A DNA stretch of 37,142 nucleotides from a virus (Duplodnaviria > Heunggongvirae > Uroviricota > Caudoviricetes). Below the pieces are notes generated by a model. That model worked only from the letters and a program-made list of their open reading frames with translations, was not told where the DNA came from and made no database searches. Below are positions 2,621 through 37,142 of the stretch, piece after piece. Each line of letters opens with the position of its first letter. The first letter of the stretch is position 1. The stretch is taken from IMG/VR virus record IMGVR_UViG_2737471867_000005. One strand, given 5' to 3'. A program made the position numbers and the translations under genes.

Positions 2621-2732
2621 AACTGAAGTTGCCCTGAAAATGAAATTTTTTTGCACAACCGCAGAACTTTTCCGCAGGGCATCAGTCTTAATTAGTGCCA
2701 CTGCTTTTCTTTGATGTCCCCATTTTGTGGAG

Positions 2733-2776
2733 CCCATCAACCCCGCCATTTCGGTTCAAGGTTGATGGGTTTTTTG
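2733..2776 (+). terminator. rho-independent terminator downstream of ybjL
   Basis: Stem CCCATCAACC / GGTTGATGGG with a 17-nt loop, followed by TTTTTT. Confidence 0.6.
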
Positions 2777-2855
2777 TTGCCTGAAATTTATGCTGTTTAA
2801 AATCATGATGTTAGAAGCACTGTTTTTTAACGATGGCGACAAAATGGCGGCAGCG

Positions 2856-4747: not shown

Positions 4748-7700
4748 GCGTCGTATCCCCCCTGATCGCTGTAGTTACTCCTGGCTTTTGCCTTCAGCCT
4801 GCGTTCACGTTCATCAAGCTGGCGGGCCACCTCCCGTGCAATATCCTGCGCACTTTGTCCTGGCTGCGTCTGAATGATGATCTGCGTCGGTGCCTCAATC
4901 CGGTGAATGGGCGGCACAGTGGCTGCACGACTCACCATCGCTTCGCCGCCTTTCGCGGGAAGTGCCAAAGGATGCAACGGTGGAAGCTCTGCAGGCGCGG
5001 CAGCAACGCCCATCATTCCGGCAACAACGGCAGCCAGTGCAGCTGTATTTCTCCGGCTGGTCACATTTGCCGGGCCGTTAACAATTTCCGGCCCGTTTTC
5101 ACCGACGATGCCAAACTGCCCGCGCGGGATATAGCCGCCGCTGTCATACATCCCCGCAAAGCCATATCCCCATGACGGAAAACCACCCGATGGCATCATC
5201 ACTTTACCGTCTGCATTCACCGTCGCAGGTTGCTGACGCGTCACTCTTTCCGGCAGTTTCGCCTTTGCAGCCTCTTTACTGACAATGCCGAGTTTCTCCA
5301 GCAACCAGGAAACGCCGGATTTCAGGGAGTCCAGCGGATGCATGACCATATTTAGCCCTTCCGCCAGTGCCTCCCCGAATCGTCGCCCCATTGCCGCTGC
5401 GCTCTGCAGTTCGGCAGAGGTCGACTTAACGGGCGTCAGCAGATCAGTAAACCAGCCCCACAACGCCTGCACTTTGTCGCCAATCCACTGAAACACAGGC
5501 TTAAGCGGTTCGAATGCTGCACTGATGGGACCTGCCGCCGCGTTGAATCCTTCCACCACACCAGCGAGAAATGCGGTGATGGGTTGCCAGTATTTCCAGA
5601 CAACCAGCGCCACGCCCGCCAGTGCAGTAACCACAAGACCTATCGGACTGAGCAGAGCACCTAACAGACCAGATACGGCATACAGGGCAACGCGCAGCAT
5701 CGCCAGCGGACCGGATGCCAGTACTCGCAGCACCGCGCCTGCGGCAGCCAGTCCACCGCGTAGTGCTGCCAGTGGATTCATAAACATCACAGCAACAGCA
5801 CGTAAACCGGATAATCCAGACCGCAACAGTGCAACCGGCACACCTGCTACAGTTTTCAGGACATTCCCCGTCAGTGATGCCGTGCGGCGCAAAGACGACA
5901 ACGGCGCAGTAAGTAAACCCGCTGCGTTGCCCGATGAAGCAAGCCCGCGTCGCAGCAGTGCCAGTGGAGCGCCAGCCAGCCAGGACAACGCGCTGCTGGT
6001 TCGTGTTACTGCTGCCGTAACGGAAGGTAACGTTTTGATACCCAGCACAGAGAATCCCAGACGGATGACTGCCAGCGGCCCCAGCACTGCAGCCAGCGCC
6101 ACCGCTAAGGTGCCGAGGCCTACGGTAACCGCAGCCACAACAGCCGCTACTTTCATCAGTGTGCCTGTCAGTTCCGGGTTAGCTTCCACCCAGCGGCGCA
6201 ACGCCCCCGTGATGCTTTTTACCGTGTACAGAATATCCATCAGCGGCTGGCGCAGCGTTTCGCCCAGGCTGCTGAAGGTGTTCTGCGCTCCGGTTTTGAC
6301 CAGCAACCACTGCGCAGAAAGTGAGTCTTTGTTGATGTCGGATTCTTTCTGCATGGAACCGAGCGCATCATTGCCCGCAGTCAGTTTTAGCTGGCGCTGC
6401 AGTTCCGGAAGGTTGTTTGCCAGTTTCGCCGCGTCATCACCAAACTCTTTACCAAACAACATGGTCATGGCAGACAGACGCTTGTCCTGCGGCAGTGCGT
6501 TCACCTTCTCCAACACACGCTGGATAGTTCCCATCGCATCCTTCGTCATCTGCTTTTCAATCACTTCAGGATTGAGTTTCAGCAGATTCATCCCTTCAAA
6601 GAAACTCTTGCTTTGCATGGTGGCAATGGACAATTCACGCACCATCGCGTTTGCTGCACTGGCTGCAACCTCCGGCGCAGCGCCCAGTGTCAGAAAGGTG
6701 GAACCCAGTGCCGCCGCTTTACGATAATCCAGACGGTCAGCCACACCGCCCAGACGTTGCATCACATCAATGATGTCCGCCCCTTTCGACATGGCGTTAT
6801 CATCCAGATAGTTCAGCGCATCGCCGAGCTGTTCAATATTGCGGGTAGGTATTTTGTAGAGCTGGGCGATTTTCCCCAGACTTTCTGACAGTTCATCCGC
6901 TGGCAGCTCAAAGGCTGTTGCCGCCTTTGCTGCCGTACTGGCGAAGGCCAGCAGGTCACGTTTCTGGTCTTCCCAGCTGTCGTCAGGGTTTGCGACGTTC
7001 ATGCGCGCACCACCTTCAACCAGTGCAGCGAAGTCCACCGCACCGTTTTCCATCGGCAACTGTTCGCTGGCAGCCTTGATGGCATCCTGCATTTCATAAA
7101 AACGTGCAGTGCGGTTGCCATTATCGTCACGCAGACCATTGACCTGCTTTGCCACACCTTTCATGGCATCTTCCATGCTGGTATAGCTTTTTACTGCCGC
7201 CATCACTGGCGCACCCATTGCCAGCCCTGCAGCCGTGGTAGTGGCTCCGGCTCCTGCGATGCGATCGCGCACCTCCAGTGAACGGGCATAACTGGCACGC
7301 GCTGCATTCATCCGGCGCTGAGCTTCCCCCAGTCGCTTCAGCCGCGCCTCCTGTTTCGACAGTTCCTGGTTATAACGTGATGCTTCACGGGCTAAACGGG
7401 CAGTTGCTCCCGCATCATCTTTCGCAGAAATTCCCGCCCGGTACAGTTCTGCACGCACAAGCGCCGTTTGCTGCTGCAGCTTTTTCTGGCGTTCTTCCAG
7501 GCGCTGAACAGCCAGCCGTTGACGGCCCAGAGCAACAACCTGACGTTGCGAAGGCGGCCCCATCGCTCCCAGTTCCTGACTGAGCAAATTTGCACGCTGG
7601 CGGGCATAGTTCAGCCTGTCGCCTAATTTCTGATTTTCTGCCTGCAGCTTTCGGAAGCTGTCCAGACTGCTCCCGGCCTGATCAAGCTGCTTTATTGCAT

Positions 7701-7821
7701 CGCGGGATTTTTTGACAGCAGCAGCCAGTTCTCTTGAACTGGCCTGCGCAGATCGAAATGGGCGGGTGAGCTTGTCAACCGCATTAAGAATGACCTGCAG
7801 ACGCAGGTTGTTATCACTCAT
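4744..7821 (-). CDS. T: tail tape measure protein
   Basis: 1025-aa protein with a coiled-coil N-terminal half and a Gly/Ala-rich hydrophobic central region; sits after E/E'. Confidence 0.9.
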   Translation of the reverse strand: MSDNNLRLQVILNAVDKLTRPFRSAQASSRELAAAVKKSRDAIKQLDQAGSSLDSFRKLQAENQKLGDRLNYARQRANLLSQELGAMGPPSQRQVVALGRQRLAVQRLEERQKKLQQQTALVRAELYRAGISAKDDAGATARLAREASRYNQELSKQEARLKRLGEAQRRMNAARASYARSLEVRDRIAGAGATTTAAGLAMGAPVMAAVKSYTSMEDAMKGVAKQVNGLRDDNGNRTARFYEMQDAIKAASEQLPMENGAVDFAALVEGGARMNVANPDDSWEDQKRDLLAFASTAAKAATAFELPADELSESLGKIAQLYKIPTRNIEQLGDALNYLDDNAMSKGADIIDVMQRLGGVADRLDYRKAAALGSTFLTLGAAPEVAASAANAMVRELSIATMQSKSFFEGMNLLKLNPEVIEKQMTKDAMGTIQRVLEKVNALPQDKRLSAMTMLFGKEFGDDAAKLANNLPELQRQLKLTAGNDALGSMQKESDINKDSLSAQWLLVKTGAQNTFSSLGETLRQPLMDILYTVKSITGALRRWVEANPELTGTLMKVAAVVAAVTVGLGTLAVALAAVLGPLAVIRLGFSVLGIKTLPSVTAAVTRTSSALSWLAGAPLALLRRGLASSGNAAGLLTAPLSSLRRTASLTGNVLKTVAGVPVALLRSGLSGLRAVAVMFMNPLAALRGGLAAAGAVLRVLASGPLAMLRVALYAVSGLLGALLSPIGLVVTALAGVALVVWKYWQPITAFLAGVVEGFNAAAGPISAAFEPLKPVFQWIGDKVQALWGWFTDLLTPVKSTSAELQSAAAMGRRFGEALAEGLNMVMHPLDSLKSGVSWLLEKLGIVSKEAAKAKLPERVTRQQPATVNADGKVMMPSGGFPSWGYGFAGMYDSGGYIPRGQFGIVGENGPEIVNGPANVTSRRNTAALAAVVAGMMGVAAAPAELPPLHPLALPAKGGEAMVSRAATVPPIHRIEAPTQIIIQTQPGQSAQDIAREVARQLDERERRLKAKARSNYSDQGGYDA

Positions 7822-10144: not shown

Positions 10145-10717
10145 TCAGGGGGATTCATTGATCTTATTTGCCGGAAATTTTCTATAAATGGTAGAAACGC
10201 CTACATCAAAAATCAGTGCAATACGCTGTCTTGATTCTCCGGCCTCGAGTAAACGCCCAATCTGTGCCCACTGTTCGGTGGTCAACTTAGGACGGCGTCC
10301 ACCTACTCTGCCTTTGGCACGAGCTGCAGCCAGCCCTGCCCTGGTACGTTCAACTATCAGTTCGCGTTCCATTTCAGCCATGGCACCCATGACATGAAAA
10401 AAGAAACGGCCCATTGGGGTACTGGTATCAATACTGTCAGTCAGGCTTCTGAAATTCACACCACGCTGGCGCAACTCTTCTATCAGCGTAACAAGATGCC
10501 GCATACTGCGCCCCAACCTGTCCAGCTTCCAGACAACCAGCGTGTCTCCTGCCGATAGTGTCCTGAGTAGTTTTTTCAGCCCCGGTCTGTCGGACTTAGT
10601 GCCACTGATTTTGTCCTCAAAAATCTGCTCACATCCCGCGCAGTTCAGTGCATTACGTTGCAAATCGGTGTTCTGGTCATTTGTTGACACGCGTACATAG
10701 CCAATAAGTATGATCAT
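10145..10717 (-). CDS. serine DNA invertase (Gin/Pin/Cin/Hin family)
   Basis: 190-aa protein with N-terminal IGYVRVSTNDQ catalytic-serine motif and a C-terminal HTH; adjacent to inverted tail-fibre segments. Confidence 0.9.
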   Translation of the reverse strand: MIILIGYVRVSTNDQNTDLQRNALNCAGCEQIFEDKISGTKSDRPGLKKLLRTLSAGDTLVVWKLDRLGRSMRHLVTLIEELRQRGVNFRSLTDSIDTSTPMGRFFFHVMGAMAEMERELIVERTRAGLAAARAKGRVGGRRPKLTTEQWAQIGRLLEAGESRQRIALIFDVGVSTIYRKFPANKINESP

Positions 10718-21804: not shown

Positions 21805-23571
21805 ATGAACACCACACTGACACCCGCAGATCTCGATCCCCGTCGGCAGGCCATGCTGCTGTACTTTCAGGGATACCGCGTAGCCCGCATTGCTGAAATG
21901 CTGGGCGAGAAAGTTGCAACCGTTCACAGCTGGAAAAAACGCGACAAGTGGGGTGACTATGGGCCGCTGGATCAGATGCAGCTCACCACCGCCGCACGCT
22001 ACTGCCAGCTCATTATGAAGGAGCACAAAGAAGGGAAAGATTTCAAAGAGATTGACCTGCTGGCGCGCCAGTCGGAGCGCCATGCGCGGATCGGCAAGTT
22101 TAACAATGGCGGCAACGAAGCCGACTTAAACCCTAACGTCGCCAACCGCAACAAAGGCCCACGCCGTCAGCCGGAAAAGAACGTTTTCACCGATGAACAG
22201 ATTGAGAAGCTGGAAGAAATTTTCCATTCCTCCATGTTCAACTACCAGCGCCACTGGTGGGAAGCCGGAAAAACCAACCGCATCCGCAACCTGCTGAAGT
22301 CACGCCAGATCGGCGCGACCTTTTACTTTGCCCGTGAAGCCCTGATTGACGCCCTGCTTACCGGACGTAACCAGATTTTCCTTTCCGCCAGTAAGGCACA
22401 GGCCCACGTCTTTAAACAGTACATCATCGACTTCGCCAAAGAAGTAGAGGTGGAGCTGAAAGGCGATCCGATGGTGCTTCCCAACGGGGCCACACTGTAT
22501 TTCCTCGGCACCAATGCCCGCACGGCCCAGAGTTATCACGGCAACCTGTATCTGGATGAATATTTCTGGATACCGAAATTTCAGGAGCTGCGCAAAGTGG
22601 CTTCCGGTATGGCTATTCACAAAAAATGGCGACAAACCTATTTTTCCACGCCATCCAGTCTGACACACAGTGCTTATCCGTTCTGGTCCGGTGCGCTGTT
22701 CAACCGTGGGCGCAACAAAGCCGATAAGGTGGACATCGACCTGTCCCACAGCAATCTGGCCCCCGGCCTGCTGTGCGCAGACGGGCAATACCGCCAGATA
22801 GTCACCGTGGAAGATGCGGTACGCGGCGGCTGTAACCTGTTCGACCTCGACCAGCTACGCATGGAGTACAGCCCGGATGAATACCAGAACCTGCTGATGT
22901 GCGAGTTTGTGGACGATCTCGCGTCCGTGTTTCCGCTCAGCGAGCTGCAGGCGTGCATGGTGGACAGTTGGGAAGTCTGGACCGACTTTCATGCACTGGC
23001 GCTGCGCCCGTTTGGCTGGCGCGAAGTGTGGATCGGTTATGACCCGGCAAAAGGCACGCAAAACGGCGACAGCGCCGGATGCGTGGTGGTGGCACCGCCA
23101 GCCGTGCCGGGTGGTAAGTTCCGCATTCTTGAGCGTCACCAGTGGCGCGGGATGGACTTCCGCGCCCAGGCTGACGCCATCAAAAAACTGACCGAACAGT
23201 ACAACGTGACCTATATCGGTATCGACTCAACCGGCGTTGGTCACGGGGTTTACGAGAACGTGAAAGCGTTTTTTCCTGCCGTCCGGGAGTTTGTCTACAA
23301 CCCCAACGTTAAAAACGCCCTGGTACTCAAGGCCTACGACATTATCAGCCACCGCCGTCTGGAGTTTGACGCCGGACACACCGACATAGCGCAGTCCTTT
23401 ATGGCAATCCGTCGCGCCACCACCGCCAGTGGCAACCGCCCGACCTATGAAGCCAGCCGCAGCGAAGAAGCCAGCCACGCCGATCTGGCCTGGGCAACGA
23501 TGCACGCACTGTTTAACGAACCGCTGCAGGGCGAATCCGCCAATACCAGCAATATTGTGGAGATTTTTTGA
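21805..23571 (+). CDS. P: terminase large (ATPase) subunit P
   Basis: 588-aa ORF. Confidence 0.9.
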   Translation: MNTTLTPADLDPRRQAMLLYFQGYRVARIAEMLGEKVATVHSWKKRDKWGDYGPLDQMQLTTAARYCQLIMKEHKEGKDFKEIDLLARQSERHARIGKFNNGGNEADLNPNVANRNKGPRRQPEKNVFTDEQIEKLEEIFHSSMFNYQRHWWEAGKTNRIRNLLKSRQIGATFYFAREALIDALLTGRNQIFLSASKAQAHVFKQYIIDFAKEVEVELKGDPMVLPNGATLYFLGTNARTAQSYHGNLYLDEYFWIPKFQELRKVASGMAIHKKWRQTYFSTPSSLTHSAYPFWSGALFNRGRNKADKVDIDLSHSNLAPGLLCADGQYRQIVTVEDAVRGGCNLFDLDQLRMEYSPDEYQNLLMCEFVDDLASVFPLSELQACMVDSWEVWTDFHALALRPFGWREVWIGYDPAKGTQNGDSAGCVVVAPPAVPGGKFRILERHQWRGMDFRAQADAIKKLTEQYNVTYIGIDSTGVGHGVYENVKAFFPAVREFVYNPNVKNALVLKAYDIISHRRLEFDAGHTDIAQSFMAIRRATTASGNRPTYEASRSEEASHADLAWATMHALFNEPLQGESANTSNIVEIF

Positions 23572-24599
23572 TGGGAAAGAGTAAGAAGAACCGCGCTGCG
23601 GCGACGAAACAGATCCAGCTTAAAAGTCAAACTACAGCCGAAGCATTCAGCTTCGGCGATCCCGTTCCTGTTCTGGACCGCCGAGAACTGCTGGATTATG
23701 TGGAATGCGTACAGATGGACCGCTGGTATGAGCCGCCCGTCAGCTTTGACGGACTGGCGCGCACCTTCCGCGCTGCCGTGCATCATAGTTCCCCGATTGC
23801 AGTAAAGTGCAACATTCTGACCAGCACCTACATCCCTCACCCGCTGCTCAGCCAGCAGGCTTTTTCGCGTTTTGTTCAGGACTATCTGGTATTTGGTAAC
23901 GCCTACCTGGAGAAACGCACGAACCGCTTCGGTGAAGTTATCGCCCTTGAACCTGCCCTGGCAAAATACACCCGACGCGGGTTAGACCTGGATACCTACT
24001 GGTTTGTGCAATACGGTATGACCACGCAGCCATATCAGTTCACGAAAGGCAGCATCTTTCATCTGATGGAACCGGACATCAACCAGGAGATCTACGGCCT
24101 GCCCGGTTATCTTTCTGCCATTCCGTCAGCCCTGCTCAACGAGTCCGCCACGCTGTTCCGCCGAAAGTATTACATTAACGGCAGTCATGCTGGCTTCATC
24201 ATGTACATGACCGATGCCGCGCAGAACCAGGAGGACGTGAACAACCTCCGCAATGCGATGAAAAGCGCCAAAGGCCCTGGCAACTTCCGCAACCTGTTTA
24301 TGTACTCGCCTAACGGCAAAAAGGACGGGCTTCAGATTATTCCTCTGTCAGAAGTCGCGGCAAAGGATGAATTTTTGAATATCAAGAACGTGAGCCGGGA
24401 TGACATGATGGCAGCACACCGAGTGCCGCCGCAAATGATGGGGATAATACCGAATAATGTTGGGGGATTTGGGGATGTGGAGAAGGCTAGTAAGGTTTTT
24501 ATGCGTAATGAATTGATACCGCTACAAAACAGAATAGAAGAACTCAATAAATGGCTCAAAGATGACATAATAAAATTCATGCCATACAGTTTCATATAA
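23568..24599 (+). CDS. Q: portal protein Q
   Basis: 343-aa ORF; the last ~50 codons change to AT-rich codon usage. Confidence 0.88.
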   Translation: MMGKSKKNRAAATKQIQLKSQTTAEAFSFGDPVPVLDRRELLDYVECVQMDRWYEPPVSFDGLARTFRAAVHHSSPIAVKCNILTSTYIPHPLLSQQAFSRFVQDYLVFGNAYLEKRTNRFGEVIALEPALAKYTRRGLDLDTYWFVQYGMTTQPYQFTKGSIFHLMEPDINQEIYGLPGYLSAIPSALLNESATLFRRKYYINGSHAGFIMYMTDAAQNQEDVNNLRNAMKSAKGPGNFRNLFMYSPNGKKDGLQIIPLSEVAAKDEFLNIKNVSRDDMMAAHRVPPQMMGIIPNNVGGFGDVEKASKVFMRNELIPLQNRIEELNKWLKDDIIKFMPYSFI

Positions 24600-24605
24600 A
24601 ACTAA

Positions 24606-24624
24606 GGGCCGAATACCTCGGCCC
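24606..24624. terminator. GC hairpin between convergent Q and the accessory gene
   Basis: GGGCCGA-atacc-TCGGCCC; weak T-tract on either side. Confidence 0.4.
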
Positions 24625-24630
24625 TCTACA

Positions 24631-26304
24631 TTAAGATTTATGGCTAAAGAGTATACCTGTAACAGAACGTTGATAGGCATCAAGCTTCTCTTGCCTCTGC
24701 TTAAATTTAGATTTGATATCACTAATACTCGGAATACCTATTACTCCAAGGCCTGCACTTAACGCCGCTAAAGTAGTATTGCCAGTCAGCGCTCCAGCAA
24801 TTGCTATAGCACCATTTGCGATACATGGTAGGACATCCAGTCCGTAAATTCTCAATTTCTCTTTTTGGGCTTTTGCAAGAATCCTTTGATGTTCAATAAA
24901 AGCCCGGTCTACATTATCAATTACTTTTTGCGTTGTCCTCGAAAAGCTCTCTGCCGAAGAATTGATTAAAGAGTCAACACCATTTGATAAGATGGATCTT
25001 ACATCCTCCATCAATTTGTTACGTCTCAACTCAATTATTTTATTGACCGGTACATTTCCTAACCATGAAAAACCATCTTGCATACCAGCAGATAACGCAT
25101 GAACCATATGCAAATTTTTTAGTTCAATATCATTGACATCAAAATTAAGAGATTCGTACTCAATAAGCCAAGTATAATAGAGCCAAGATGTGTCTGCATT
25201 TATATATGGAGTACTACCAAGTTCTTGTGCATTACATTTTGCTGAATAGGCTTGCGGCATTCTTCCAATGCAGGAAAGGAAAACCTCCATTCCAGCATAA
25301 TCACCAACAACATTACGTGATATTCTTTTTTTATCAGATAGTAGTTTTTCTAATTGAGTTTTTGGATTTAGCCCCCATGCTGTATCAAAAATAAGTCTAT
25401 CTGCTCTCTTAATATTTTTAAGAACAGCATCAATATCATTCATCGAATAACTAAAATCTTGAAATTCATCGTAGCTTTCGAACCGTCGATCATAGAGATA
25501 TTGCGCATGAGTCAGAGCATAAGGCTCACAAAAACTCATCAAATTTTTTTTGCTCTCAGTTTCAAAATCTCTTCTATCCGGCAAAATTAATACTATTGCT
25601 GGCTCTATATCTTCAAGCGCTACTTCTTTATATGTCATACATGTTAGGACATGCTTCAGAAGTATCCTTGTAAACTCAGCCTTATCTGACTTTTCATAGA
25701 GACGACCGACTCTTAATATAGGACATGGAAGTGAAATAGTATCAACATACAACCCTGCAATAGAGACAGCATTCTCATCAAATGCAGGAAATAAGTCACC
25801 AGAAAAATTAGCTTTAAACTGAGAACCATCCTGCAAATGTATTACACCAATATCGGATGTTACCTGCCAAAACTCTATTACCTGATTATATAACTCAGGA
25901 AAAATACCTTCTATTTGCTTAACATATTCTTCTTGTTGAGAAAAAAAACTTGATGCTTTATGTGGCGTTGCATTAGTTTTTTTCATCAGATAAAACAACT
26001 CGCCAAAATTACTAAAAAGAATATTAAAGTAAGAACTTTGCAAGTCCTGAATAGAGTATTTGTTTTTTATATCTTCTCTTTCTAAAAAGTGATTAACCGC
26101 TGCTCCCATAGCCCTTATTCTGCCATCAACAGTAGAAGGGTCAACTTTACCATCCTGTCGCAGACTTATTCTTTTAAAACTTTCAATAAAACCTTCTACA
26201 AGATGATGAGCTATTTTTAGTTTTCCCGCTTCCAGTTGTTGCTTAATGAGAAAAACACGCTCAGTTAAATCGTCTACATATTCCTCATCTTGATATTTTT
26301 CCAT
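24631..26304 (-). CDS. uncharacterised 557-aa accessory protein with C-terminal glycine-zipper membrane segment
   Basis: Long AT-rich ORF with a GGAG RBS. C-terminal GAIAIAGALTG...LSAGLGVIGIP is hydrophobic and Gly-rich; no motif I can assign. Confidence 0.75.
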   Translation of the reverse strand: MEKYQDEEYVDDLTERVFLIKQQLEAGKLKIAHHLVEGFIESFKRISLRQDGKVDPSTVDGRIRAMGAAVNHFLEREDIKNKYSIQDLQSSYFNILFSNFGELFYLMKKTNATPHKASSFFSQQEEYVKQIEGIFPELYNQVIEFWQVTSDIGVIHLQDGSQFKANFSGDLFPAFDENAVSIAGLYVDTISLPCPILRVGRLYEKSDKAEFTRILLKHVLTCMTYKEVALEDIEPAIVLILPDRRDFETESKKNLMSFCEPYALTHAQYLYDRRFESYDEFQDFSYSMNDIDAVLKNIKRADRLIFDTAWGLNPKTQLEKLLSDKKRISRNVVGDYAGMEVFLSCIGRMPQAYSAKCNAQELGSTPYINADTSWLYYTWLIEYESLNFDVNDIELKNLHMVHALSAGMQDGFSWLGNVPVNKIIELRRNKLMEDVRSILSNGVDSLINSSAESFSRTTQKVIDNVDRAFIEHQRILAKAQKEKLRIYGLDVLPCIANGAIAIAGALTGNTTLAALSAGLGVIGIPSISDIKSKFKQRQEKLDAYQRSVTGILFSHKS

Positions 26305-26405
26305 AAACGCTCCATTAAAATATTTAATAATGCATATAAGAATAATTAATAATATTTACAGTAACTATATCACATTAGATCCAGATTGTTACACTGTTGC
26401 GCGCG

Positions 26406-26424
26406 CTCGTATCCCCGCCACGCC
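26406..26424. other. cos-like site (cohesive-end core)
   Basis: Minus-strand GGCGTGGCGGGGATACGAG matches the first 13 nt of the P2/186 cohesive end as I recall it (GGCGTGGCGGGGAAAGCAT), followed by GCGCGC. Confidence 0.55.
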
Positions 26425-26624
26425 TGCCCACTTTATGTAGTGGTTTTCATGCACCTGCATGACATAAGCAAAAGCACGCCAGTTCTGGCTGGCATCAGCG
26501 AAAACGATCGTCATACTATCATGCGATCTCATGCGCCATATGAAGTTTTCCTGACACAGCCTTGGGTTGGGATAACACCTAACTCAGGAAGATTTTTTGT
26601 GTGTTTGTAACCCACACCTAGAGT

Positions 26625-27794
26625 TTACCAATCCATGTTTGCGGCATTATCCATCTCACGAGTTAAGTAATTAACAAATAAGTCCATATTCCTTTCTGAT
26701 TTCATCGCCTCCGCATAGGTTCCATTAGTTACGTAAGATAGTATTAAAGGACATCCAGATTCAATATAAATTTTTGCTGGGGACAGTTCTCCCTGCCACA
26801 AATTTTCAAGGAAATCGTTAATTAATTGCATTGCTTCAGGTGCCAAAAAATGCACACCATTTCCAAACTTGAAACGTTCTTTATTTTCTCGATGAGGCAG
26901 CAATAGTGGCACAGCCCCTACACTTGAGTGAAATTCCAATGCTTGCCCATCCTTACCGAAGGCGCCATGGGCTACAAAATTACGCACCTGTTTTCTGAGT
27001 ATAAGTAAACGATCATAGAACAATTTTAGGCTGGAAGAGTTAATATCAATGGCTAATTTGAATTTCTCCCCCCATTCTTTTCCAACTTTATCAGCCACAT
27101 CATTCCCATTTTTTATCTCACCCTTCAAGATTGCAATAAGAATGAAAACATGCTCGGTCCAATTGAAAAATGACTCAATTGCAGACGTTGCTAACCACAT
27201 AGCCTCTCTTCGGAGTTCAATTATCTTATTTGATTGTTCAAAAGTGGATTGTAACAGGCTGAAAAAATTATCAGACTTAAACTCACTATCAACTTCCAGT
27301 TTAGACTCTTGGCCAGCAGCAACTTCATCAAGCTTCTGTTTATATAGCTCTAAAAAATAGCAAAACCTATCATAAAGAGAATTAGCATTGTTATTAACAT
27401 TTAGATTTGAAGTCTTTGCTGCATTGTCTGCAAGCGAATCAAAAAAATTCGTAGCAGCTTTAACCCCTGCGCAAATATGTCTCAAAACAGTTTTAGCTTG
27501 CTCTATATCATCATCACTCTTGATAAATATATCTAAACCAAGTTTACGATGTTCTATAATTACGACAGTCCCATCAATCCGGACTGGGATAGAAAAAGAA
27601 ATCTTCTCATCAACCCCACGATTTTTAAATTTCAGTAAATCTACCAAAAGAAAATAAACGAGATAATACGGAGGTAATGAGTCTCCCAAACCCGAGCGCT
27701 TACCCCAAAAATATTCATCAAGCTCGGCAGACTCCATTGTCCCTATGACTCTTCGGACGCGTTCTTCAACTTTAGCCAGATCCATTCCCCACAC
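26625..27794 (-). CDS. uncharacterised 389-aa accessory protein with HEPN-like R-x4-H motif
   Basis: AT-rich ORF; RNFVAH motif at plus 26967..26984. Start uncertain (GTG at 27794 or ATG at 27785). Confidence 0.7.
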   Translation of the reverse strand: MWGMDLAKVEERVRRVIGTMESAELDEYFWGKRSGLGDSLPPYYLVYFLLVDLLKFKNRGVDEKISFSIPVRIDGTVVIIEHRKLGLDIFIKSDDDIEQAKTVLRHICAGVKAATNFFDSLADNAAKTSNLNVNNNANSLYDRFCYFLELYKQKLDEVAAGQESKLEVDSEFKSDNFFSLLQSTFEQSNKIIELRREAMWLATSAIESFFNWTEHVFILIAILKGEIKNGNDVADKVGKEWGEKFKLAIDINSSSLKLFYDRLLILRKQVRNFVAHGAFGKDGQALEFHSSVGAVPLLLPHRENKERFKFGNGVHFLAPEAMQLINDFLENLWQGELSPAKIYIESGCPLILSYVTNGTYAEAMKSERNMDLFVNYLTREMDNAANMDW

Positions 27795-27955
27795 CGCCTT
27801 TCAATATCACTTAAGGTATTACAGCCAATGACATCGATTAAATACAGCGTAGATAATAGGCAACTTGCTACTGTTTTCAAGGGCTTTCTGTTTCAATCCT
27901 TAGTTGACCTTGCTGACGCGAGAATCTAGTTCTCACGCCAGCAACGCCCCTGCTG

Positions 27956-28144
27956 CTAACCGAGAAGATCCATTACACGGTTATATTCATGGGCACGAAT
28001 TTTCGCCATCAACTCATCAGTCAGCTCTGAAACCCACTGCAGAGCCAGCCCCTTCTCTTCATCACTACACTCACTAGCCGCTACAAGCTTAAGAAAAAAA
28101 TCAATGCGCTGGAGCTTCAAAGACTCCAAAAAATAGTCCTGCAT
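27956..28144 (-). CDS. small hypothetical protein (62 aa)
   Basis: ATG at 28144 preceded by a perfect AGGAGG-aaaa spacer; AT-rich. Confidence 0.55.
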   Translation of the reverse strand: MQDYFLESLKLQRIDFFLKLVAASECSDEEKGLALQWVSELTDELMAKIRAHEYNRVMDLLG

Positions 28145-28297
28145 TTTTCCTCCTATGACACCACAAGCAATACTGTATGCATAACCACTGTTTATATTTA
28201 CAGTATATAATAATCTTACTGATGTAAAACGTTTTTTTACGTTCATCAGCCTGATATGCCTGGTATTATTAAGAGCACGAATTGTTAATCCGCGTAA

Positions 28298-30712
28298 TTA
28301 ATACAGGTTCCGCCACTTATCATCTTCCCACAAACGCTGGTTCCGATAGAAGATACGCAAGCCTGCTCCTGACGGAATACTGCCGCCGCGAAGGAGTAAA
28401 TCGACCTCTTTCTCGCTGCCATCAAATCCTCTGGACTTCAGCTCATAGACGAGCTGCAGTCGCTGATGGTCTGTAATTCGCTGTTTGTAGTCTTTACGCC
28501 GTTTCGGTTTAACCAGGCGTAACCTTGCTGCCAGATCCCGGCGCTCTTTTTTGCTCATACTGTGCAGGTAATCGTGCAACTCCTTGTCATCCATGCGGGT
28601 AATGTCCGTTCTGGTGTCCCCATCAGCTGATTTATCTTTCTCCTGTTGGTTCAAATTTTCAGCAAGGGGACAGTTATTGCCACGAGTCCAAGGGGCGCAA
28701 GCGCCCTGGTCGGCTGCCGCCTCCTGAACGTCAACGGCTTTACGAACCATTTTCCACTTCACTGCATGAGTGCAGATCTTGCCCTCTGCAATGGGTGACC
28801 AGATGCCATAAATACGAATGCCGTGATCGCCATAGGCGGTCGGCTCTTCGTTGATTTCATAAGCGGTTCTGATGAGGTGATATTTACGGGGAACCAGTAC
28901 GCCGCCCTGCTTCATGATGTAGGTGGCAAAACAACCAGCATCAGCAGCAGCCAAGATGGCATCAAGGCGCGGGTTATCCAGTACCGGCGCACCTGCTTTT
29001 TTGTCCCCCTGTTGCCTTGCCGCCTGACCAGCCAGCAATCGCAGTTCACGGTAAGCCTGACGCCCCGGAATGCCAAAGAAGCGGAATTGCTGAACACGAT
29101 GCAAAGACGCCCAGGCGTTCACGTATTCAGCGTTATCACGCAGAGATTTACCCGTTTCCTTGCTGATCTCGCCAGCCAGACCACGCCCGTCAATGTTCTT
29201 ACTGATGTATTTCGCTATGTAGCTTGTCGGCGTTCCTTTGCGCGGGTTAATCAGCTCAGACTTAAAGCGCGGCCCCGTGTTATTGCCCAGCTCCTCGCGG
29301 TCTTCACGGATAGCAAACTTACGCAACAATGCAGTAATGGCGCGGCGGTCTTTTTTGCGCATGAAACACAACAGGTGCCAGTGAACTGTGCCGTCGTGAT
29401 GCGGCTCAGCCACCCGCACGCCATACCAGCGCAACCCGGCTTTGTGCATCGCCTTACGAAATGCAGCAAACATACCGACCAGATAATCGCTGCTTTGTCT
29501 TACCGTCGCATTTGTCCAGGTCGGGTTGGGCCTGCCGTTATTTAGCGTGGAATGGAAACGTGACGGACAGGTGATGGTGTAGAAAACGGCGCAGTCACCG
29601 CGCATTTCCGCGATAAGCTCCAGACCTTTAACACAGGCCATCATCTCATTGCGGCGATGCGCAGGGTTGCTGCTGCTGGCGTTTACCACATCCTCCATGT
29701 CCAGCGTGTCGCCGTCTTCGTTCACCAGTTCATGAGAACGGAAAAACTCCAGCGACTTACGGTGCTGCTCACGTTTATGCAACACGGCTTCATAGCTGAC
29801 ATAGGGAGATGCTTTTTTGCTGACAAGGCAGACAGCACGCAACTGCTCTTCCCGCCATTCGCAACGCATCTTCCATAATTTCCGATACCACCAGTCGGCG
29901 CACAACATACGCGCCAGCGAACCCGGAATGAGTTCATAGGGCACGGGTTTACGGCGGTTTCTTTTCCGACGGAGTTGCTCAAACGCAGGCGGGATGACAT
30001 CCAGACGCAGGGTTTCCGCTGCCACCCTTTCCCATGTATTGCGGATTTCTTCTGGCTTAACGTCATCGGTGGCATACAAATCGCCACAAGCGGCATCAAG
30101 GCACATACTCATATGCGCAGCTACCAGGGTGGACAGGCGTTTCACCTGATCCTGACTCATTTCAGGCAGGATCAGCAGGCCGTCCAGCCCTTCATGGCTT
30201 GCCATAAAGCGAAAAGATGCAGATAGCTGACTGTCGCGTACATGCTCCAGTCGTTCCAGACATGGCTTAATCGTCTCACGTAAATAGCGGGAATAAGCCT
30301 TTGGCCTGCCCAGGCTGCTGAAGTATTCAATACGTTGCATCAGCGGCTTGCTGATATGGGAAGGCTGGGCGTTGACGTCCGCCAGAATGACCATATCCGG
30401 ATTAAAACGCTGCTGCTCATGCGCCAGCTTTGCCCGACTAATGAGCTTATCCTGTTCCATTTCGCGCTGGACAGGATCACGGGATTCATTAAAGAAATAA
30501 CGCTCCCAGACCTGATCACTCAGCGCCTCACGGCGCAGCTGTTCCTGCTCGTTATCGGCAGCGTACAGAGTGATCAGGTTTGAAAGCGTAGAAACCGGCG
30601 CAACTTCCACCGTGTCCAGATAAGGGTTAATGGCCTTTTTCGGGCTGTTCCATGAGAACGATGCGGCGACCTCGTTAAAGCCGCTGCAGTTGTTCATATC
30701 AGCATGGCTCAT
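28298..30712 (-). CDS. A: rolling-circle replication initiator A
   Basis: 804-aa ORF in the P2 gene A position. Confidence 0.85.
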
Positions 30713-31566
30713 GCACGCACTCCGTACACGGCAGAACTATCCACGCCACGCGAAGGATCAAATCCCACCCAGCAGCGCGGCCCGGAAACAGCGATGATTT
30801 CTGTTGCAGATTTACTCTCACCAGCTGCCACACCGATGCTGCGTTTTGCCTTGATGTAGTGGTGAGTAAAATTGCGATATAGCGAACGGATCAGGGATGT
30901 GTCACTGTTAGAAACAATGACCGGATGTCCTTCTGATGACCGATGTTCAAGAACGGATGCCAGGTGATACTGGTCATCTTCAGTGAAACCATCAGTGTGA
31001 TAGCCGGAAAACGTACCCTCATACGGCGGATCGCAATACACCACATCCCCCACCTGCAGCATCGCCAGCGTTTCATCAAAGCTTGCGCAGATAAACGTTG
31101 CCCGCTGGGCTTTCTCTGCAAATGCGCGGATTTCTTTTTCAGGGAAATACGGATTTTTATAATTACCGTACGGAATGTTGAAATGCCCGCTCTTGTTATA
31201 GCGACATAAACCACGGTAACCGTGACGATTGAGATACAGGAAATATACCGCTTTCATGAAATCAGTAATTTCAGTTGAGTAATTAAACTCCTGCCTTATG
31301 TTGTAATAAGCCACCTCCCTGTTTGCTTCCTTAAATAAAACTCTGGCGCGAGATATAAACGATTCACAATCAGCGGCAACCTTTTTATAGAGGTTGATTA
31401 AATCAGGATTAATATCCGCAACCAGATAGCTTGGATAATCCGTCGCCATCATCACTGCACAGGAACCCGCGAAAGGTTCAACCAGTCGCGGGCCAGCAGG
31501 AAGGTGTTTTTTCAGTTCGGACATAATTGCGGTTTTATTTCCCGCCCATTTCAGGATGGTGCTCAT
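30709..31566 (-). CDS. dam: DNA adenine methyltransferase (Dam-like)
   Basis: N-terminal KWAGNK SAM-binding motif and DPPY catalytic motif; start at 31566 overlaps the upstream stop (ATGA). Confidence 0.85.
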
Positions 31567-31790
31567 ACAGCACCTCCGTTGTAATGTTTGCCTTTCAGCT
31601 CTGCGATTTCCTGACAGGTAATGCAAAGCTGCACACCTGGAATGGCGCGGCGGCGTGCTGGCGGAATTGGCGCTTCACACTCAATACAAAGCACGCGGGA
31701 CACGCCCGGCGTTTTGGCACGGGCAGCACGGATATGGCGCTGGCGTTCTTCTTCAACGCGCTGCTGTACGAGATCCATTGCATCAGCCAT
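31563..31790 (-). CDS. TraR/DksA-type C4 zinc-finger protein
   Basis: CIEC...x17...CITC spacing in a 75-aa ORF. Confidence 0.7.
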   Translation of the reverse strand: MADAMDLVQQRVEEERQRHIRAARAKTPGVSRVLCIECEAPIPPARRRAIPGVQLCITCQEIAELKGKHYNGGAV

Positions 31791-33712: not shown

Positions 33713-34309
33713 ATGTCAACATCAAAGTACCCAAGTGAGATCAAAATAAATCCCAATAAAGGTGGTAAGGCTGCGATTGAGCGATTAGTCGAAGCTTATG
33801 GCTTTACGACACGACAGGCTTTAGCTGATCACTTGGAAGTATCAAAAAGCACTCTGGCGAACAGGTATTTGCGGGATACGTTTCCTGCAGACTGGATAAT
33901 CCAATGTGCTCTTGAAACAGGAACCTCACTGAAATGGTTAACCACCGGGCAAGGACTTAAGCAAAGCTCGCTGACAGTAGCCACAGAAGAGCTTCCCAAG
34001 TTTCGCCTTACCGCAGGCAAAATGATTGAAGATGGTTCATATGTCTTCGATTCATCATTTCTTCCTGCAAATCTTTCATCACCAATTGTTATTCTGGATG
34101 GGCTTGTCACATACATTTGTGATCAAAAATTTTCTGAAGTACTTGATGGGCACTGGTTAATCAACATCGACGGAACCTATTCCATTCGAAAAATCACAAA
34201 GCTTCCAAAAGGTATGATTAAAATTACAACTACAGAGAATAGCTTTGAATGTGCATTTTCTGATATTGAAGTGGTTGCTTGTATAAGAAGTACAATAGTT
34301 TCAAATTGA
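33713..34309 (+). CDS. cI: CI immunity repressor (phage 186 type)
   Basis: 198-aa protein with an N-terminal HTH; position and sequence are 186 CI-like. Confidence 0.85.
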   Translation: MSTSKYPSEIKINPNKGGKAAIERLVEAYGFTTRQALADHLEVSKSTLANRYLRDTFPADWIIQCALETGTSLKWLTTGQGLKQSSLTVATEELPKFRLTAGKMIEDGSYVFDSSFLPANLSSPIVILDGLVTYICDQKFSEVLDGHWLINIDGTYSIRKITKLPKGMIKITTTENSFECAFSDIEVVACIRSTIVSN

Positions 34310-34329
34310 TATAGTAAAAGGATTTAAAA

Positions 34330-36006
34330 ATGAATTCATTTTCCATCGTTATATTCTTATTAGCATTTCTCGCCCCTGTTCTAGCTATAATATTATTTAA
34401 GCAAAGTAAAGAACACAAAACCGCCATAGATAACCTGACGGCTAACAACATAGCTCTTTCCAGCCAACTGAAAGAAAATCAAGAAGAATTAGCACAGACT
34501 GTACGAGATCTATCAGAGCTTGAAGGACGAGCTGCACCATTATGGCAATACGTAGAATTGCACAGCGCAGTGATGGAAGCAGAGAATAAGATAAAAAATG
34601 CAGACTCAATAGCCAGGCAAAAAATAGAAGAAGCCCAAATAAAGGCTGCTAAGACAGTAAACGAAGCAAATTATCAAGCTCAGATAACAATAAGCAACGC
34701 TAATAGCGAAGCTATAGCAATCACCAAAGACGCTCGCGATGCACGCCTGAAAGCCAAAGAACGTCTTGATAATGCCAACAGTAAAGCAAATGAGCTGATC
34801 TCAAATGCTAATGACAACGCAGTAAAAATTATTTCCGATGCAGAAGAAAGAGCAAAAGAGATTGCTGGTTCAGCATATGAAGCTAAAGAGTTTGCAGAAA
34901 AATATGAAGCAGTTGCCAAATCAATGAAAAATAAAATTGAAGGTTATGGCGATGAATGGATCATCCCTAACCGTAGTGTACTTGATGAATTGGCAGAAAA
35001 TTATGAGTTTACAGATGCAGGCAAGGAATTACAAAAAGCCAGGGAGTTAACAAAATCATTAATAAAAACTAATAAAGCAGCTTCGTGTGATTATGTTGAG
35101 CCAAACAGGCGTAATACTGCTATCAACTTTGTTTTGGATGCCTTCAATGGAAGAGTTGACAGTATTTTATCAAAAGTCAAACACAACAATTTTGGAAAAC
35201 TTTCCCAAGAAATAAAAGATGCATTTCAACTTGTAAATTATAATGGCTCTGCTTTTAAATCCGCAAAAATAAGTGACATCTATCTTCAGGCACGACTCAA
35301 CGAGCTAAAATGGGGAGTTGCAGTTAATGAAATTATGCTCAAAGAAAAAGAGGAGCAAAGAAGGATTAAAGAACAGCTTCGTGAAGAGGAAAGAGCTCGT
35401 AGAGAGTATGAAAAAGCGATAAAAGAAGCCGAAAAAGAAGAGAAAGCTATTCAGCAAGCTATAAATAAAGCGACGAAAGAGCTTATGCTTGCAAATGAAG
35501 AACAACGCTTAGCTTTAGAGCAAAAAATAGCTGAACTACAGTTAAAATATGAAGAAGCTGAAGCTAAAAACCAACGAGCTATTTCTATGGCTCAACAAAC
35601 TAGATCAGGCCATGTTTATATAATTAGCAATATTGGCTCATTTGGCGAAGATGTATATAAAATTGGAATGACACGCCGCCTTGAACCACTTGATCGTGTT
35701 CGTGAACTTGGGGATGCTAGTGTTCCTTTTTCGTTCGATGTTCATGCGATGATTTATAGTGATGATGCACCGTCATTAGAAAATCATCTGCATAAAGTCT
35801 TCAACGAAAAGCAGGTCAATAAAATTAACTCACGAAAAGAGTTTTTTAACGTAAATATTAAAGAAATTAAATCGGTTATTGAAGATATGAACATCAATGC
35901 CCACTGGACAATGTTTGCAGAGGCGAAAGAATATAGAGAGTCACTAGCTATTGAGCAGGAACGCAAAGCAGCCACTTCCGCCAACGATGAACTACATGTT
36001 GCTTAG
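34330..36006 (+). CDS. membrane-anchored coiled-coil protein with C-terminal T5orf172/GIY-YIG-like domain
   Basis: N-terminal TM helix (FSIVIFLLAFLAPVLAIILF), a long K/E/A-rich coiled coil, and a C-terminal GHVYIISN...YKIGMT motif from about 35608. AT-rich; inserted between cI and int. Confidence 0.8.
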   Translation: MNSFSIVIFLLAFLAPVLAIILFKQSKEHKTAIDNLTANNIALSSQLKENQEELAQTVRDLSELEGRAAPLWQYVELHSAVMEAENKIKNADSIARQKIEEAQIKAAKTVNEANYQAQITISNANSEAIAITKDARDARLKAKERLDNANSKANELISNANDNAVKIISDAEERAKEIAGSAYEAKEFAEKYEAVAKSMKNKIEGYGDEWIIPNRSVLDELAENYEFTDAGKELQKARELTKSLIKTNKAASCDYVEPNRRNTAINFVLDAFNGRVDSILSKVKHNNFGKLSQEIKDAFQLVNYNGSAFKSAKISDIYLQARLNELKWGVAVNEIMLKEKEEQRRIKEQLREEERARREYEKAIKEAEKEEKAIQQAINKATKELMLANEEQRLALEQKIAELQLKYEEAEAKNQRAISMAQQTRSGHVYIISNIGSFGEDVYKIGMTRRLEPLDRVRELGDASVPFSFDVHAMIYSDDAPSLENHLHKVFNEKQVNKINSRKEFFNVNIKEIKSVIEDMNINAHWTMFAEAKEYRESLAIEQERKAATSANDELHVA

Positions 36007-36089: not shown

Positions 36090-37142
36090 ATGGCAGTACG
36101 AAAACTCACCACAGGAAAATGGCTGTGCGAATGTTATCCCGCCGGACGTAGTGGACGTCGTGTGCGTAAACAATTCGCCACCAAAGGCGAAGCTCTGGCT
36201 TTTGAGCGTCACACGATGGAAGAAACCGAAGCAAAGCCCTGGCTAGGTGAATCAGTGGATCGTCGAACACTGAAAGATGTGGTTGAGCTATGGTTCAAAC
36301 TACATGGTAAATCACTGACTGCTGGGCAGCATGTCTATGACAAATTGCTGCTGATGGTTGACGCTCTGGGCAATCCCCTTGCAACTGATCTAACCTCTAA
36401 AATGTTTGCCCACTATCGAGATAAACGCCTGACAGGCGAGATCTACTTCAGCGAGAAATGGAAGAAAGGAGCAAGCCCGGTCACCATTAACCTGGAGCAA
36501 AGCTATCTAAGTAGTGTTTTTAGCGAACTATCCCGTCTGGGCGAATGGTCGTATCCGAACCCACTGGAGAACATGCGAAAATTCACCATCGCAGAAAAAG
36601 AGATGGCATGGCTTACCCATGAGCAGATTGTTGAATTGCTGGCTGATTGCAAACGTCAGGACCCAATTCTGGCACTGGTAGTTAAGATATGCTTAAGCAC
36701 AGGCGCACGCTGGCGTGAAGCCGTAAATCTTACCCGCTCACAGGTGACCAAATACCGAATTACCTTTGTCAGAACGAAGGGGAAGAAAAACAGAAGCATC
36801 CCTATCAGTAAAGAGCTTTACGAAGAGATCATGGCGCTCGATGGGTTCAATTTCTTCACAGACTGCTATTTTCAATTTTTATCCGTGATGGAAAAAACGT
36901 CTATCGTGCTCCCTCGCGGTCAACTCACACACGTTCTGCGCCATACGTTTGCAGCGCACTTCATGATGTCGGGTGGAAACATTCTGGCCTTACAAAAAAT
37001 TCTCGGACACCACGATATAAAAATGACTATGCGTTACGCACATCTGGCACCGGATCATCTGGAAACGGCGCTCCGTTTCAATCCTCTGGCAACGCTGCCA
37101 AGTGGCGACAAAGTGGCGGCAGCGGTTGGCATTACCCCGTAA
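36090..37142 (+). CDS. int: tyrosine integrase (P2 Int family)
   Basis: 350-aa ORF with C-terminal HxLRHT and MRYAHL catalytic tyrosine region; its stop codon is the last 3 nt of the window. Confidence 0.9.
   Translation: MAVRKLTTGKWLCECYPAGRSGRRVRKQFATKGEALAFERHTMEETEAKPWLGESVDRRTLKDVVELWFKLHGKSLTAGQHVYDKLLLMVDALGNPLATDLTSKMFAHYRDKRLTGEIYFSEKWKKGASPVTINLEQSYLSSVFSELSRLGEWSYPNPLENMRKFTIAEKEMAWLTHEQIVELLADCKRQDPILALVVKICLSTGARWREAVNLTRSQVTKYRITFVRTKGKKNRSIPISKELYEEIMALDGFNFFTDCYFQFLSVMEKTSIVLPRGQLTHVLRHTFAAHFMMSGGNILALQKILGHHDIKMTMRYAHLAPDHLETALRFNPLATLPSGDKVAAAVGITP

Follow-up and report, generated by a model that had tools for sequence, protein, structure and literature searches.

Introduction

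Experiments support the gpA-gpQ locus of P2-like phages as a defence hotspot; old/tin, DprA-PRTase, a DUF4238 protein and a three-gene system have been validated there (Rousset et al. 2022, PMC9122126). About one fifth of P2-like elements carry only unannotated genes at this locus, and the unannotated hotspot cargo of P4-like satellites is often defensive, as found for six of the eight cases tested (PMC13586616). Among other defence systems, Aditi (DitA and DitB) is a validated two-gene system without recognisable domains (Millman et al. 2022, bioRxiv 10.1101/2022.05.11.491447), and PD-Lambda-1 is a recognised single-gene defence system (Vassallo et al. 2022, PMC9519451). Here we analysed the interval between portal gene Q and replication gene A in the 37,142-nt record IMGVR_UViG_2737471867_000005 (the window; all coordinates are positions in this stretch unless another record is named), which is a P2-like prophage of Escherichia coli strain 1283 (100% identity to NZ_CP023371.1). 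The interval carries two large unannotated open reading frames (ORFs), ORF557 and ORF389, and an ORF of 62 amino acids (orf62).

Previous reading of the sequence alone had assigned the interval to a known variable defence hotspot of P2-like prophages, and it is indeed the gpA-gpQ locus (PMC9122126; PMC13586616). Like the published hotspot, it lies next to cos between A and Q and holds AT-rich variable cargo, and sister phages carry a retron or a TIR gene in the same slot. It differs from the published description in that the literature treats A–Q as one locus, whereas here two slots are split by a cos block; Table S5 of the hotspot study (PMC9122126) groups the ORF389 protein with neighbours to which it is unrelated, under 'hypothetical + hypothetical ...'. 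Both proteins also differ from P2 old/tin, as PADLOC, Pfam and NCBIfam searches gave no OLD-type, AAA or TOPRIM match for either. The sequence-only reading that the cargo resembles no nameable system held in this respect, and has to be modified for ORF557, which has a remote PADLOC match to DitB. The best overall explanation of the locus, and one that we consider rather probable, is that of two cos-flanking cargo slots with candidate single-gene defence cassettes.

Results

A conserved cos block divides the Q–A interval into two cargo slots

Within the Q–A interval a conserved cos block is flanked by two cassettes: ORF557 lies in the Q-to-cos slot (slot L) and ORF389 in the cos-to-orf62 slot (slot R). 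The features of the interval and its flanks are:

21805-23571, plus strand: terminase P, left flank
23568-24599, plus strand: portal gene Q, left flank, with an AT-rich 3' end that holds the left breakpoints of slot L (24512-24577)
24540-26395: slot L cassette (Q-to-cos), G+C 0.348, ORF557 with its own promoter-like site; left edge approximate
24604-24626: terminator-like G+C-rich hairpin between the convergent stops of Q and ORF557 (sequence, terminator scan)
24631-26304, minus strand: ORF557 (WP_032248695), 557 amino acids
26364-26392, minus strand: sigma-70 promoter-like site of ORF557 (GTAACA, 17 nt, TG-TATAGT; consensus match only)
26396-26540: conserved cos block, 145 bp, G+C 0.531, kept in every arrangement and dividing the two cassettes
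26406-26424: 19-nt cohesive-end equivalent, CTCGTATCCCCGCCACGCC, reverse complement GGCGTGGCGGGGATACGAG
26476-26495, minus strand: terminator-like hairpin 3' of ORF389, within the cos block (consensus match only)
26541-27906: slot R cassette (cos-to-orf62; old/tin side), G+C 0.381, ORF389 with its own promoter-like site
26625-27785, minus strand: ORF389 (WP_032248694), 386 amino acids from the ATG at 27785 or 389 amino acids from the GTG at 27794
27853-27880, minus strand: sigma-70 promoter-like site of ORF389 (TTGAAA, 16 nt, TATTAT; 10/12 matches; consensus match only)
27956-28144, minus strand: 62-amino-acid ORF (orf62) with a GGAGG Shine-Dalgarno sequence; phrog_698
28298-30712, minus strand: replication gene A, right flank

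The cos site was first spotted by eye and then confirmed by alignment to the P2 end junction, positions 26406-26424 being collinear with the joined P2 ends (cosL/cosR junction; 44/58 identities, E = 5e-8). The 19-mer of the window, with up to one mismatch, is present in all seven related loci examined, and the core CCCCGCC[A/T]CGCC, again with up to one mismatch, in 16 of the 24 loci scanned (23 viral contigs and the Serratia prophage L019). A direct search for the P2 cos 19-mer itself, allowing up to three mismatches, gave no match. RefSeq annotates a hypothetical protein of 41 amino acids (WP_265327973; 26389-26514, minus strand) that runs across cos and is probably a spurious call.

Pairwise BLAST comparisons with six other arrangements placed the homology breakpoints at 24512-24577 (inside the 3' end of Q, namely at 24512, 24529, 24536 or 24577 depending on the arrangement), 26396, 26540 and 27907-27968. 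The breakpoints abut the cos block on both sides, and recombinogenic ends of the linear genome may drive the exchange of cargo. No meaningful flanking repeats were found for the interval. In P2 the distance from the end of Q to cos is 167 bp without any gene in between, and old and tin are located solely on the A side of cos. ORF389 alone is therefore in the old/tin position, so that the initial view of the interval as the old/tin site of P2 applies to this gene and not to ORF557, which lies on the Q side of cos. Most relatives carry dinI on the slot R side, and the ORF389-bearing phages do not. A 40-bp segment that elsewhere lies just 3' of dinI is nevertheless kept here beside the orf62 stop (27907-27967, compared with 5287-5586 of the circular record L001 described below), indicating that the ORF389 arrangement differs by an insertion together with a deletion of about 260 bp that removed dinI, and not by a clean swap.

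The drop in composition from the end of Q to near A that had been noted at the outset is real, G+C falling from about 0.53 to 0.35-0.38. The interval 24440-28297 has a G+C content of 0.376, compared with 0.525 (standard deviation 0.055) in 1.5-kb windows elsewhere in the window, and values between Q and A sink to 0.31-0.44. The drop starts within Q, whose final 54 codons have a G+C content of 0.352 as compared with 0.534 in the remainder of the gene. Relative to the same 1.5-kb windows, ORF557 (G+C 0.354) has a z score of -3.1 and ORF389 (G+C 0.376) one of -2.7. The sole other equally AT-rich stretch, 34000-36000, encodes a known defence gene.

All three ORFs that had been read from the sequence exist, the 389-amino-acid ORF more likely being 386 amino acids long, as the ATG at 27785 is the start used by homologues and by RefSeq. 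ORF557 has a GGAG Shine-Dalgarno sequence 5' of its ATG. The terminator-like hairpin at 24604-24626 has a 10-bp stem with six G-C pairs and a T-rich tail and is probably bidirectional; P2 tQ occupies the equivalent position. An Rfam scan found no family inside the Q–A interval, and hence no retron-type or other known RNA.

The two cassettes assort independently

The survey covered 5,426 complete E. coli genomes. The flanks of the interval are matched in 1,261 of them, ORF557 is present in 17 and ORF389 in 10. Both occur together in a single one, strain 1283, that is in one of the 26 genomes carrying either gene. The proposal of variable content between conserved flanks was thus borne out, and the content is not the same in all P2-like phages, as it is found in one of the 1,261 flank-matching genomes.

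Either gene is combined with other partners. In strain S43 an identical ORF389 protein is accompanied by a TIR gene in slot L, in OkiPb01682 by a three-gene STAS-like/HATPase-like cassette in that slot; ORF557 is elsewhere paired with DinI, or with DUF2971 and DinI, in slot R. In sister phages slot L holds a Hypoth_Ymh gene (HEPN-class) or a retron. Overall, slot L shows at least five alternatives and slot R four states. In IMG/VR, 15 of the 17 ORF557-family loci are P2-like, and 11 of these have the order A..cos-557-Q-P, which holds as far as homologues of 55% identity; the Serratia prophage L019, which is not an IMG/VR record, shows the same A..cos-557-Q order with a homologue of 46% identity. 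In 9 of the 11 IMG/VR contigs in which cos was found, its core precedes the ORF557 start by about 120 bp. All four P2-like ORF389 loci read A-orf62-389-cos-(slot L cargo)-Q. As the two genes assort separately, they are two independent single-gene cassettes and not one three-gene locus.

The 62-amino-acid ORF belongs to neither cassette. It is a member of phrog_698 (E = 4e-36 in a PHROG search) and adjoins gene A in every arrangement examined, whatever the cargo, identifying it as part of the conserved P2-like backbone. The sequence-only reading, which had counted it as island cargo and had taken the interval for one locus of three proteins, therefore has to be revised on both points: the conserved cos block parts two cassettes, and orf62 stands outside them.

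Two further observations concern the slots. In Serratia marcescens L019, where the 46%-identical ORF557 homologue occupies slot L, the slot R side (5805-7734) encodes a 443-amino-acid AAA_15/AAA_21 ATPase and a 202-amino-acid protein, an OLD/PARIS/Gabija-like two-gene cassette. E. coli 13P477T carries an ORF557-bearing phage both in its chromosome and in circular 'plasmid' records (p13P477T-2, CP019275.1, here L001; 37,446 bp), which are probably excised phage genomes. The circular copies suggest that the phage is active and imply that it is not disabled by the 1.8 kb inserted between Q and cos. The ORF557 copy in L001 is annotated as frameshifted in GenBank, possibly owing to a sequencing error.

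ORF557 combines a DitB-like core with a hydrophobic helix pair

The ORF557 family is large, with 212 relatives when clustered at 90% and 760 clusters when the identity level is 50%. Its members are mostly 545-560 amino acids long, and their hosts include Enterobacterales, Aeromonas, Aquitalea and a Candidatus Electronema species. ORF557 matches no NCBIfam or PHROG family and gives nothing significant in Pfam, and no solved structural relative was found. The protein is composed of a helical N-terminal domain of about 190 amino acids, a DitB-like alpha/beta core (residues ~195-452) and a C-terminal part of about 100 amino acids with a pair of hydrophobic helices.

Residues 195-452 match positions 95-344 of the PADLOC DitB profile (250 of its 361 positions; E = 1.6e-10), and the match recurs in 23 of 39 family members and in 3 of 10 distant long variants. 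We take 'Dit' to be the protein name of Aditi in DefenseFinder/PADLOC naming. ORF557 and Aditi thus share the DitB-type core, and the proteins of both lack a recognisable domain. In contrast to Aditi, ORF557 is a single gene and adds the helical N-terminal domain and the C-terminal part with its hydrophobic hairpin to the core. With the PADLOC profiles, no DitA match was obtained at E <= 0.1 in ORF557 or the ten long variants, or at E <= 0.01 in the 39 aligned family members, so that DitA is missing from the window protein and the 48 other family proteins scanned. Lacking any DitA-like gene or region, ORF557 does not constitute an Aditi system; it shares its core with one component of that system.

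The two C-terminal helices, 488-507 and 512-530, are Gly/Ala-rich and hydrophobic, with a Kyte-Doolittle value of about 1.6, and are followed by a basic amphipathic helix; the character of the pair is kept across the family. The C-terminal region gives a weak match to the transmembrane end of influenza haemagglutinin, and residues 430-540 weakly match positions 392-509 of the dynamin-like LeoBC profile (PADLOC, E = 0.003). ORF557 differs from Eleos (LeoA/LeoBC) in that Pfam detects no dynamin GTPase domain and the weak LeoBC match stands alone. Ten polar residues, H156, D159, D170, D188, K217, H218, H266, R348, E382 and H399, are invariant in the family, which suggests an enzymatic or ligand-binding core.

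Homologues also occur at other sites. One stands alone in an integrase/AlpA island of Aeromonas, another lies beside PAAR and helix-turn-helix (HTH)-reverse-transcriptase genes on a metagenomic contig. In Enterobacter kobei, a decayed P2-like remnant is located at the same ybjL-side site (L010, FKGF01000001.1, 5367-8319). Just fragments of int/att, orf62, cos and the 3' end of Q are left of it, and the ORF557 homologue is intact (557 amino acids, 58% identity), suggesting that the host has retained it.

Relatives of 704-843 amino acids (P0279, P0336, P0345, P0354, P0357 and others) have an extra N-terminal extension of 200-300 amino acids, in which no Pfam or PADLOC domain was detected apart from a faint HTH match in one of them. 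The idea that these long relatives are fused Aditi proteins was rejected, as they show neither a Pfam domain nor a DitA match. The small PADLOC profile 'Avs1c' weakly matches 10 of the 39 standard-length members, and it also matches one long variant, within the N-terminal helices of the family.

Our best guess is that ORF557 is a membrane-associated DitB-type sensor-effector acting by abortive infection. The DitB-like cytoplasmic core would detect infection, and the C-terminal hydrophobic hairpin would act at the inner membrane, either permeabilising it and thereby aborting infection or merely anchoring the protein. We consider the membrane-effector mechanism less likely than not. Several points weigh against it: the DitB match is remote and partial in length, the hydropathy of the hairpin is just at the transmembrane threshold (1.6) and the predicted local distance difference test (pLDDT) score of the structure model is 51-58 over the hairpin. 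In addition, Aditi's own mechanism is unknown (bioRxiv 10.1101/2022.05.11.491447).

ORF389 carries an invariant R-N-x3-H motif

The relatives of ORF389 number more than 1,000 and come from Klebsiella, Aeromonas, Thalassospira and Bacterioplanes as well as from many metagenomes; no precomputed Pfam domain exists for this family. In searches with the protein itself, Pfam yielded nothing significant, and NCBIfam and PHROG yielded no match. Its structure is predicted with confidence (pLDDT 87.2, predicted template modelling score 0.80): a small alpha/beta domain at the N-terminus is followed by a helical hairpin some 85 residues long, and the C-terminal half is helical.

In an alignment of 39 sequences R268, N269 and H273 (RNFVAH) are invariant and correspond to the HEPN Rx4-6H motif. 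R-N-x3-H is the signature of HEPN ribonucleases (RNases), and the one weak Pfam match of ORF389, Csx1_HEPN, is centred on it. T210/E211, H286/S287 and M384-D385 are also invariant, and the last residue is mostly W and in a few members F. The resulting tail, A-N-M-D-W/F (~26628-26642), is near-invariant in the 39 sequences down to 43% identity. It is unusual for a protein terminus and may be an autoinhibitory or trigger-recognition element.

ORF389 thus resembles single-protein HEPN defence and abortive-infection nucleases (such as ApeA, AbiD/F, HEC-08, PrrC/RloC and Hypoth_Ymh) in its invariant R-N-x3-H within a helical domain and its stand-alone occurrence in defence islands, in one case a type I restriction-modification island as for PrrC. 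It differs from them in that it scores below threshold with the hidden Markov model of every named HEPN family and is unrelated to Hypoth_Ymh by hhalign, and to our knowledge its N-terminal alpha/beta domain, its hairpin of about 85 residues and its NMDW tail are not features of named HEPN families.

Several results count against a HEPN assignment. The Csx1_HEPN match reaches 14.5 bits against a cut-off of 23 and was obtained for 1 of 39 members in a family-wide Pfam scan. Foldseek against the PDB returned nothing at E <= 0.001, and the family profile gave no match to PDB sequences. A match to HI0074 ranks just 23rd, amid generic helical bundles. An hhalign comparison with the Hypoth_Ymh protein of phage 813R9 gave a probability of 0.3%, and no PADLOC model matches ORF389. 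As the Foldseek, profile, family-wide Pfam and hhalign searches were all negative, we infer the assignment from the motif and slightly favour ORF389 being a HEPN protein; for a HEPN RNase mechanism we regard the case as evenly poised. In such a mechanism ORF389 would be a HEPN-type RNase restrained by one part of its own chain, be it the N-terminal half, the long helical hairpin or the invariant tail at the C-terminus. When a phage infects the cell, it would cleave cellular or phage RNA and so abort the infection. The slot R cassette is a single gene without an antitoxin-like partner (MNT or other), which distinguishes it from HEPN-MNT toxin-antitoxin systems, and any toxic activity of ORF389 must therefore be self-restrained.

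The genomic surroundings of ORF389 homologues are strongly defence-like. In Klebsiella pneumoniae, a homologue of 61% identity starts 13 nt after the type I restriction-modification operon hsdM-hsdS-hsdR, and the integrase island around them also holds a ScoMcrA-like HNH gene. Further homologues lie directly after hipBA in an integrative conjugative element near QueC-like and M78/HTH genes, or are paired with an HNH gene.

Defence and alternative roles of the two cassettes

In the favoured explanation, each slot holds a cassette that is self-contained, consists of a single gene and was acquired horizontally, and that most likely shields the lysogen from other phages. Judged from context, which includes the retron, TIR and Hypoth_Ymh genes found as alternatives in slot L, a defence function is likely for each of the two genes, and they are plausible new single-gene defence candidates in a known hotspot. 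On the other side of the balance, the usual occupant of slot R, DinI, is a non-defence protein, so that position alone is no proof. We found no published test of ORF557 or ORF389 in the literature, and no mention of WP_032248695 or WP_032248694 in its searchable part. PADLOC v2 (2023) reports nothing for ORF389 and, as a system component, just the remote DitB match for ORF557.

Alternatively, ORF389 and ORF557, perhaps together with the 62-amino-acid ORF, might constitute one multi-gene defence system, for example a HEPN nuclease with a membrane effector. Such pairs of a nuclease and a membrane protein are found in many defence systems, and the two genes are neighbours that share a strand and have a similar AT-richness. 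Their co-occurrence in one of 26 genomes and the unrelated partners of each speak against this, however, as do the cos block with its terminator-like hairpin between them, the distant homologues of each gene that stand alone and the presence of the 62-amino-acid ORF regardless of cargo, and we judge a single system to be very improbable. The short and fixed distance to cos, about 120 bp for the ORF557 start in 9 of 11 contigs, could also be taken as a sign of a packaging or replication role for genes hugging this site. This role is effectively refuted by distribution: the genes are carried by just 17 and 10 of the ~1,261 E. coli genomes with this prophage type, P2 is empty between Q and cos, and homologues reside in non-phage islands. 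Consistently, neither large protein turned out to be a homologue of phage morphogenesis or replication proteins, there being no PHROG, NCBIfam or significant Pfam match.

It is unlikely, but less so than the preceding two readings, that the genes are lysogenic-conversion (moron) genes unrelated to abortive defence, either of which could serve fitness, virulence or counter-defence. In this case ORF557 might act in superinfection exclusion at the inner membrane, and such blocking of DNA entry is the main alternative for this protein, whose C-terminus is of a membrane type like that of many exclusion proteins. The usual presence of dinI, an SOS modulator without a defence role, in slot R and the failure to find a known catalytic domain fit this explanation as well. 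Yet both families are widespread outside phages, in islands with restriction-modification, HNH, toxin-antitoxin or reverse-transcriptase genes, and these contexts fit general defence better than phage-specific exclusion; moreover, the core of ORF557 is common to the validated defence family DitB, and an RNase-type motif is kept in ORF389. HEPN proteins are also common toxins, so that ORF389 could be a HEPN toxin of an addiction module that stabilises the prophage or island, with any anti-phage effect being secondary. The location of one ORF389 homologue directly after hipBA and the intact ORF557 homologue in a decayed prophage would agree with addiction modules, but neither cassette has an antitoxin-sized partner (MNT or other), the single-gene cassettes have boundaries conserved in many phages and homologues are found standing alone, making this explanation improbable.

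Returning to two independent defence cassettes, a more far-reaching version can be formulated, which we regard as doubtful. ORF557 would represent a single-chain immune family in which a DitB-type core fused to a membrane-inserting hairpin does the work of the two-gene Aditi, and ORF389 would add a further new family, whose HEPN-like nuclease is set apart by its N-terminal domain and its NMDW tail. It is similarly doubtful, as part of this version, that the ORF557 family has long been resident in the Q-to-cos slot of P2-like phages.

Further cargo and other features of the prophage

Outside the Q–A interval the prophage encodes a PD-Lambda-1 homologue of 558 amino acids (34330-36006, plus strand; G+C 0.373; PADLOC E = 2e-119) with the Pfam domains DUF4041 and T5orf172/MUG113, located between the CI repressor gene (33713-34309) and the integrase gene (36090-37142). 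Together with the two cos-flanking slots, it brings the number of cargo sites in the prophage to three. Like ORF557 and ORF389 it is AT-rich single-gene cargo, here at another hotspot of the same prophage, and it differs from them in being an unrelated protein (DUF4041 and T5orf172) of a recognised system.

Directly upstream of A, a Dam-like D12-class orphan N6-adenine methyltransferase is encoded (30709-31626, minus strand; Pfam E = 1e-76; PADLOC oMTase), which may have a counter-restriction function. A Hin/Gin-type serine invertase (Resolvase and HTH_7; 10145-10717, minus strand) adjoins the tail-fibre region, which suggests invertible host-range switching at the Z/fun-side hotspot. At the chromosomal edge lie a ybjL-like host permease gene (935-2620, plus strand) and the RybB small RNA (2700-2778, plus strand; Rfam 105 bits), and the integration site of the prophage is probably beside ybjL and RybB.

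Implications for the gpA-gpQ hotspot

The hotspot itself has already been published; new here are two candidate single-gene systems and the division of the hotspot into cos-flanking slots. This division matters for the delimitation of defence systems, as surveys lump independent cassettes into one 'system'. Two unannotated hotspot genes, which belong to large families across Proteobacteria, now have exact cassette boundaries, candidate native promoters and candidate functional residues. Unannotated cargo in the gpA-gpQ hotspot is to be expected, and the link to DitB is a useful lead. If validated, ORF557 would tie a single-gene membrane-associated protein to the mechanistically unknown Aditi, and if it indeed combines a DitB core with a hairpin of its own, it would establish a new defence family and offer the first tractable way into Aditi-type sensing and killing.

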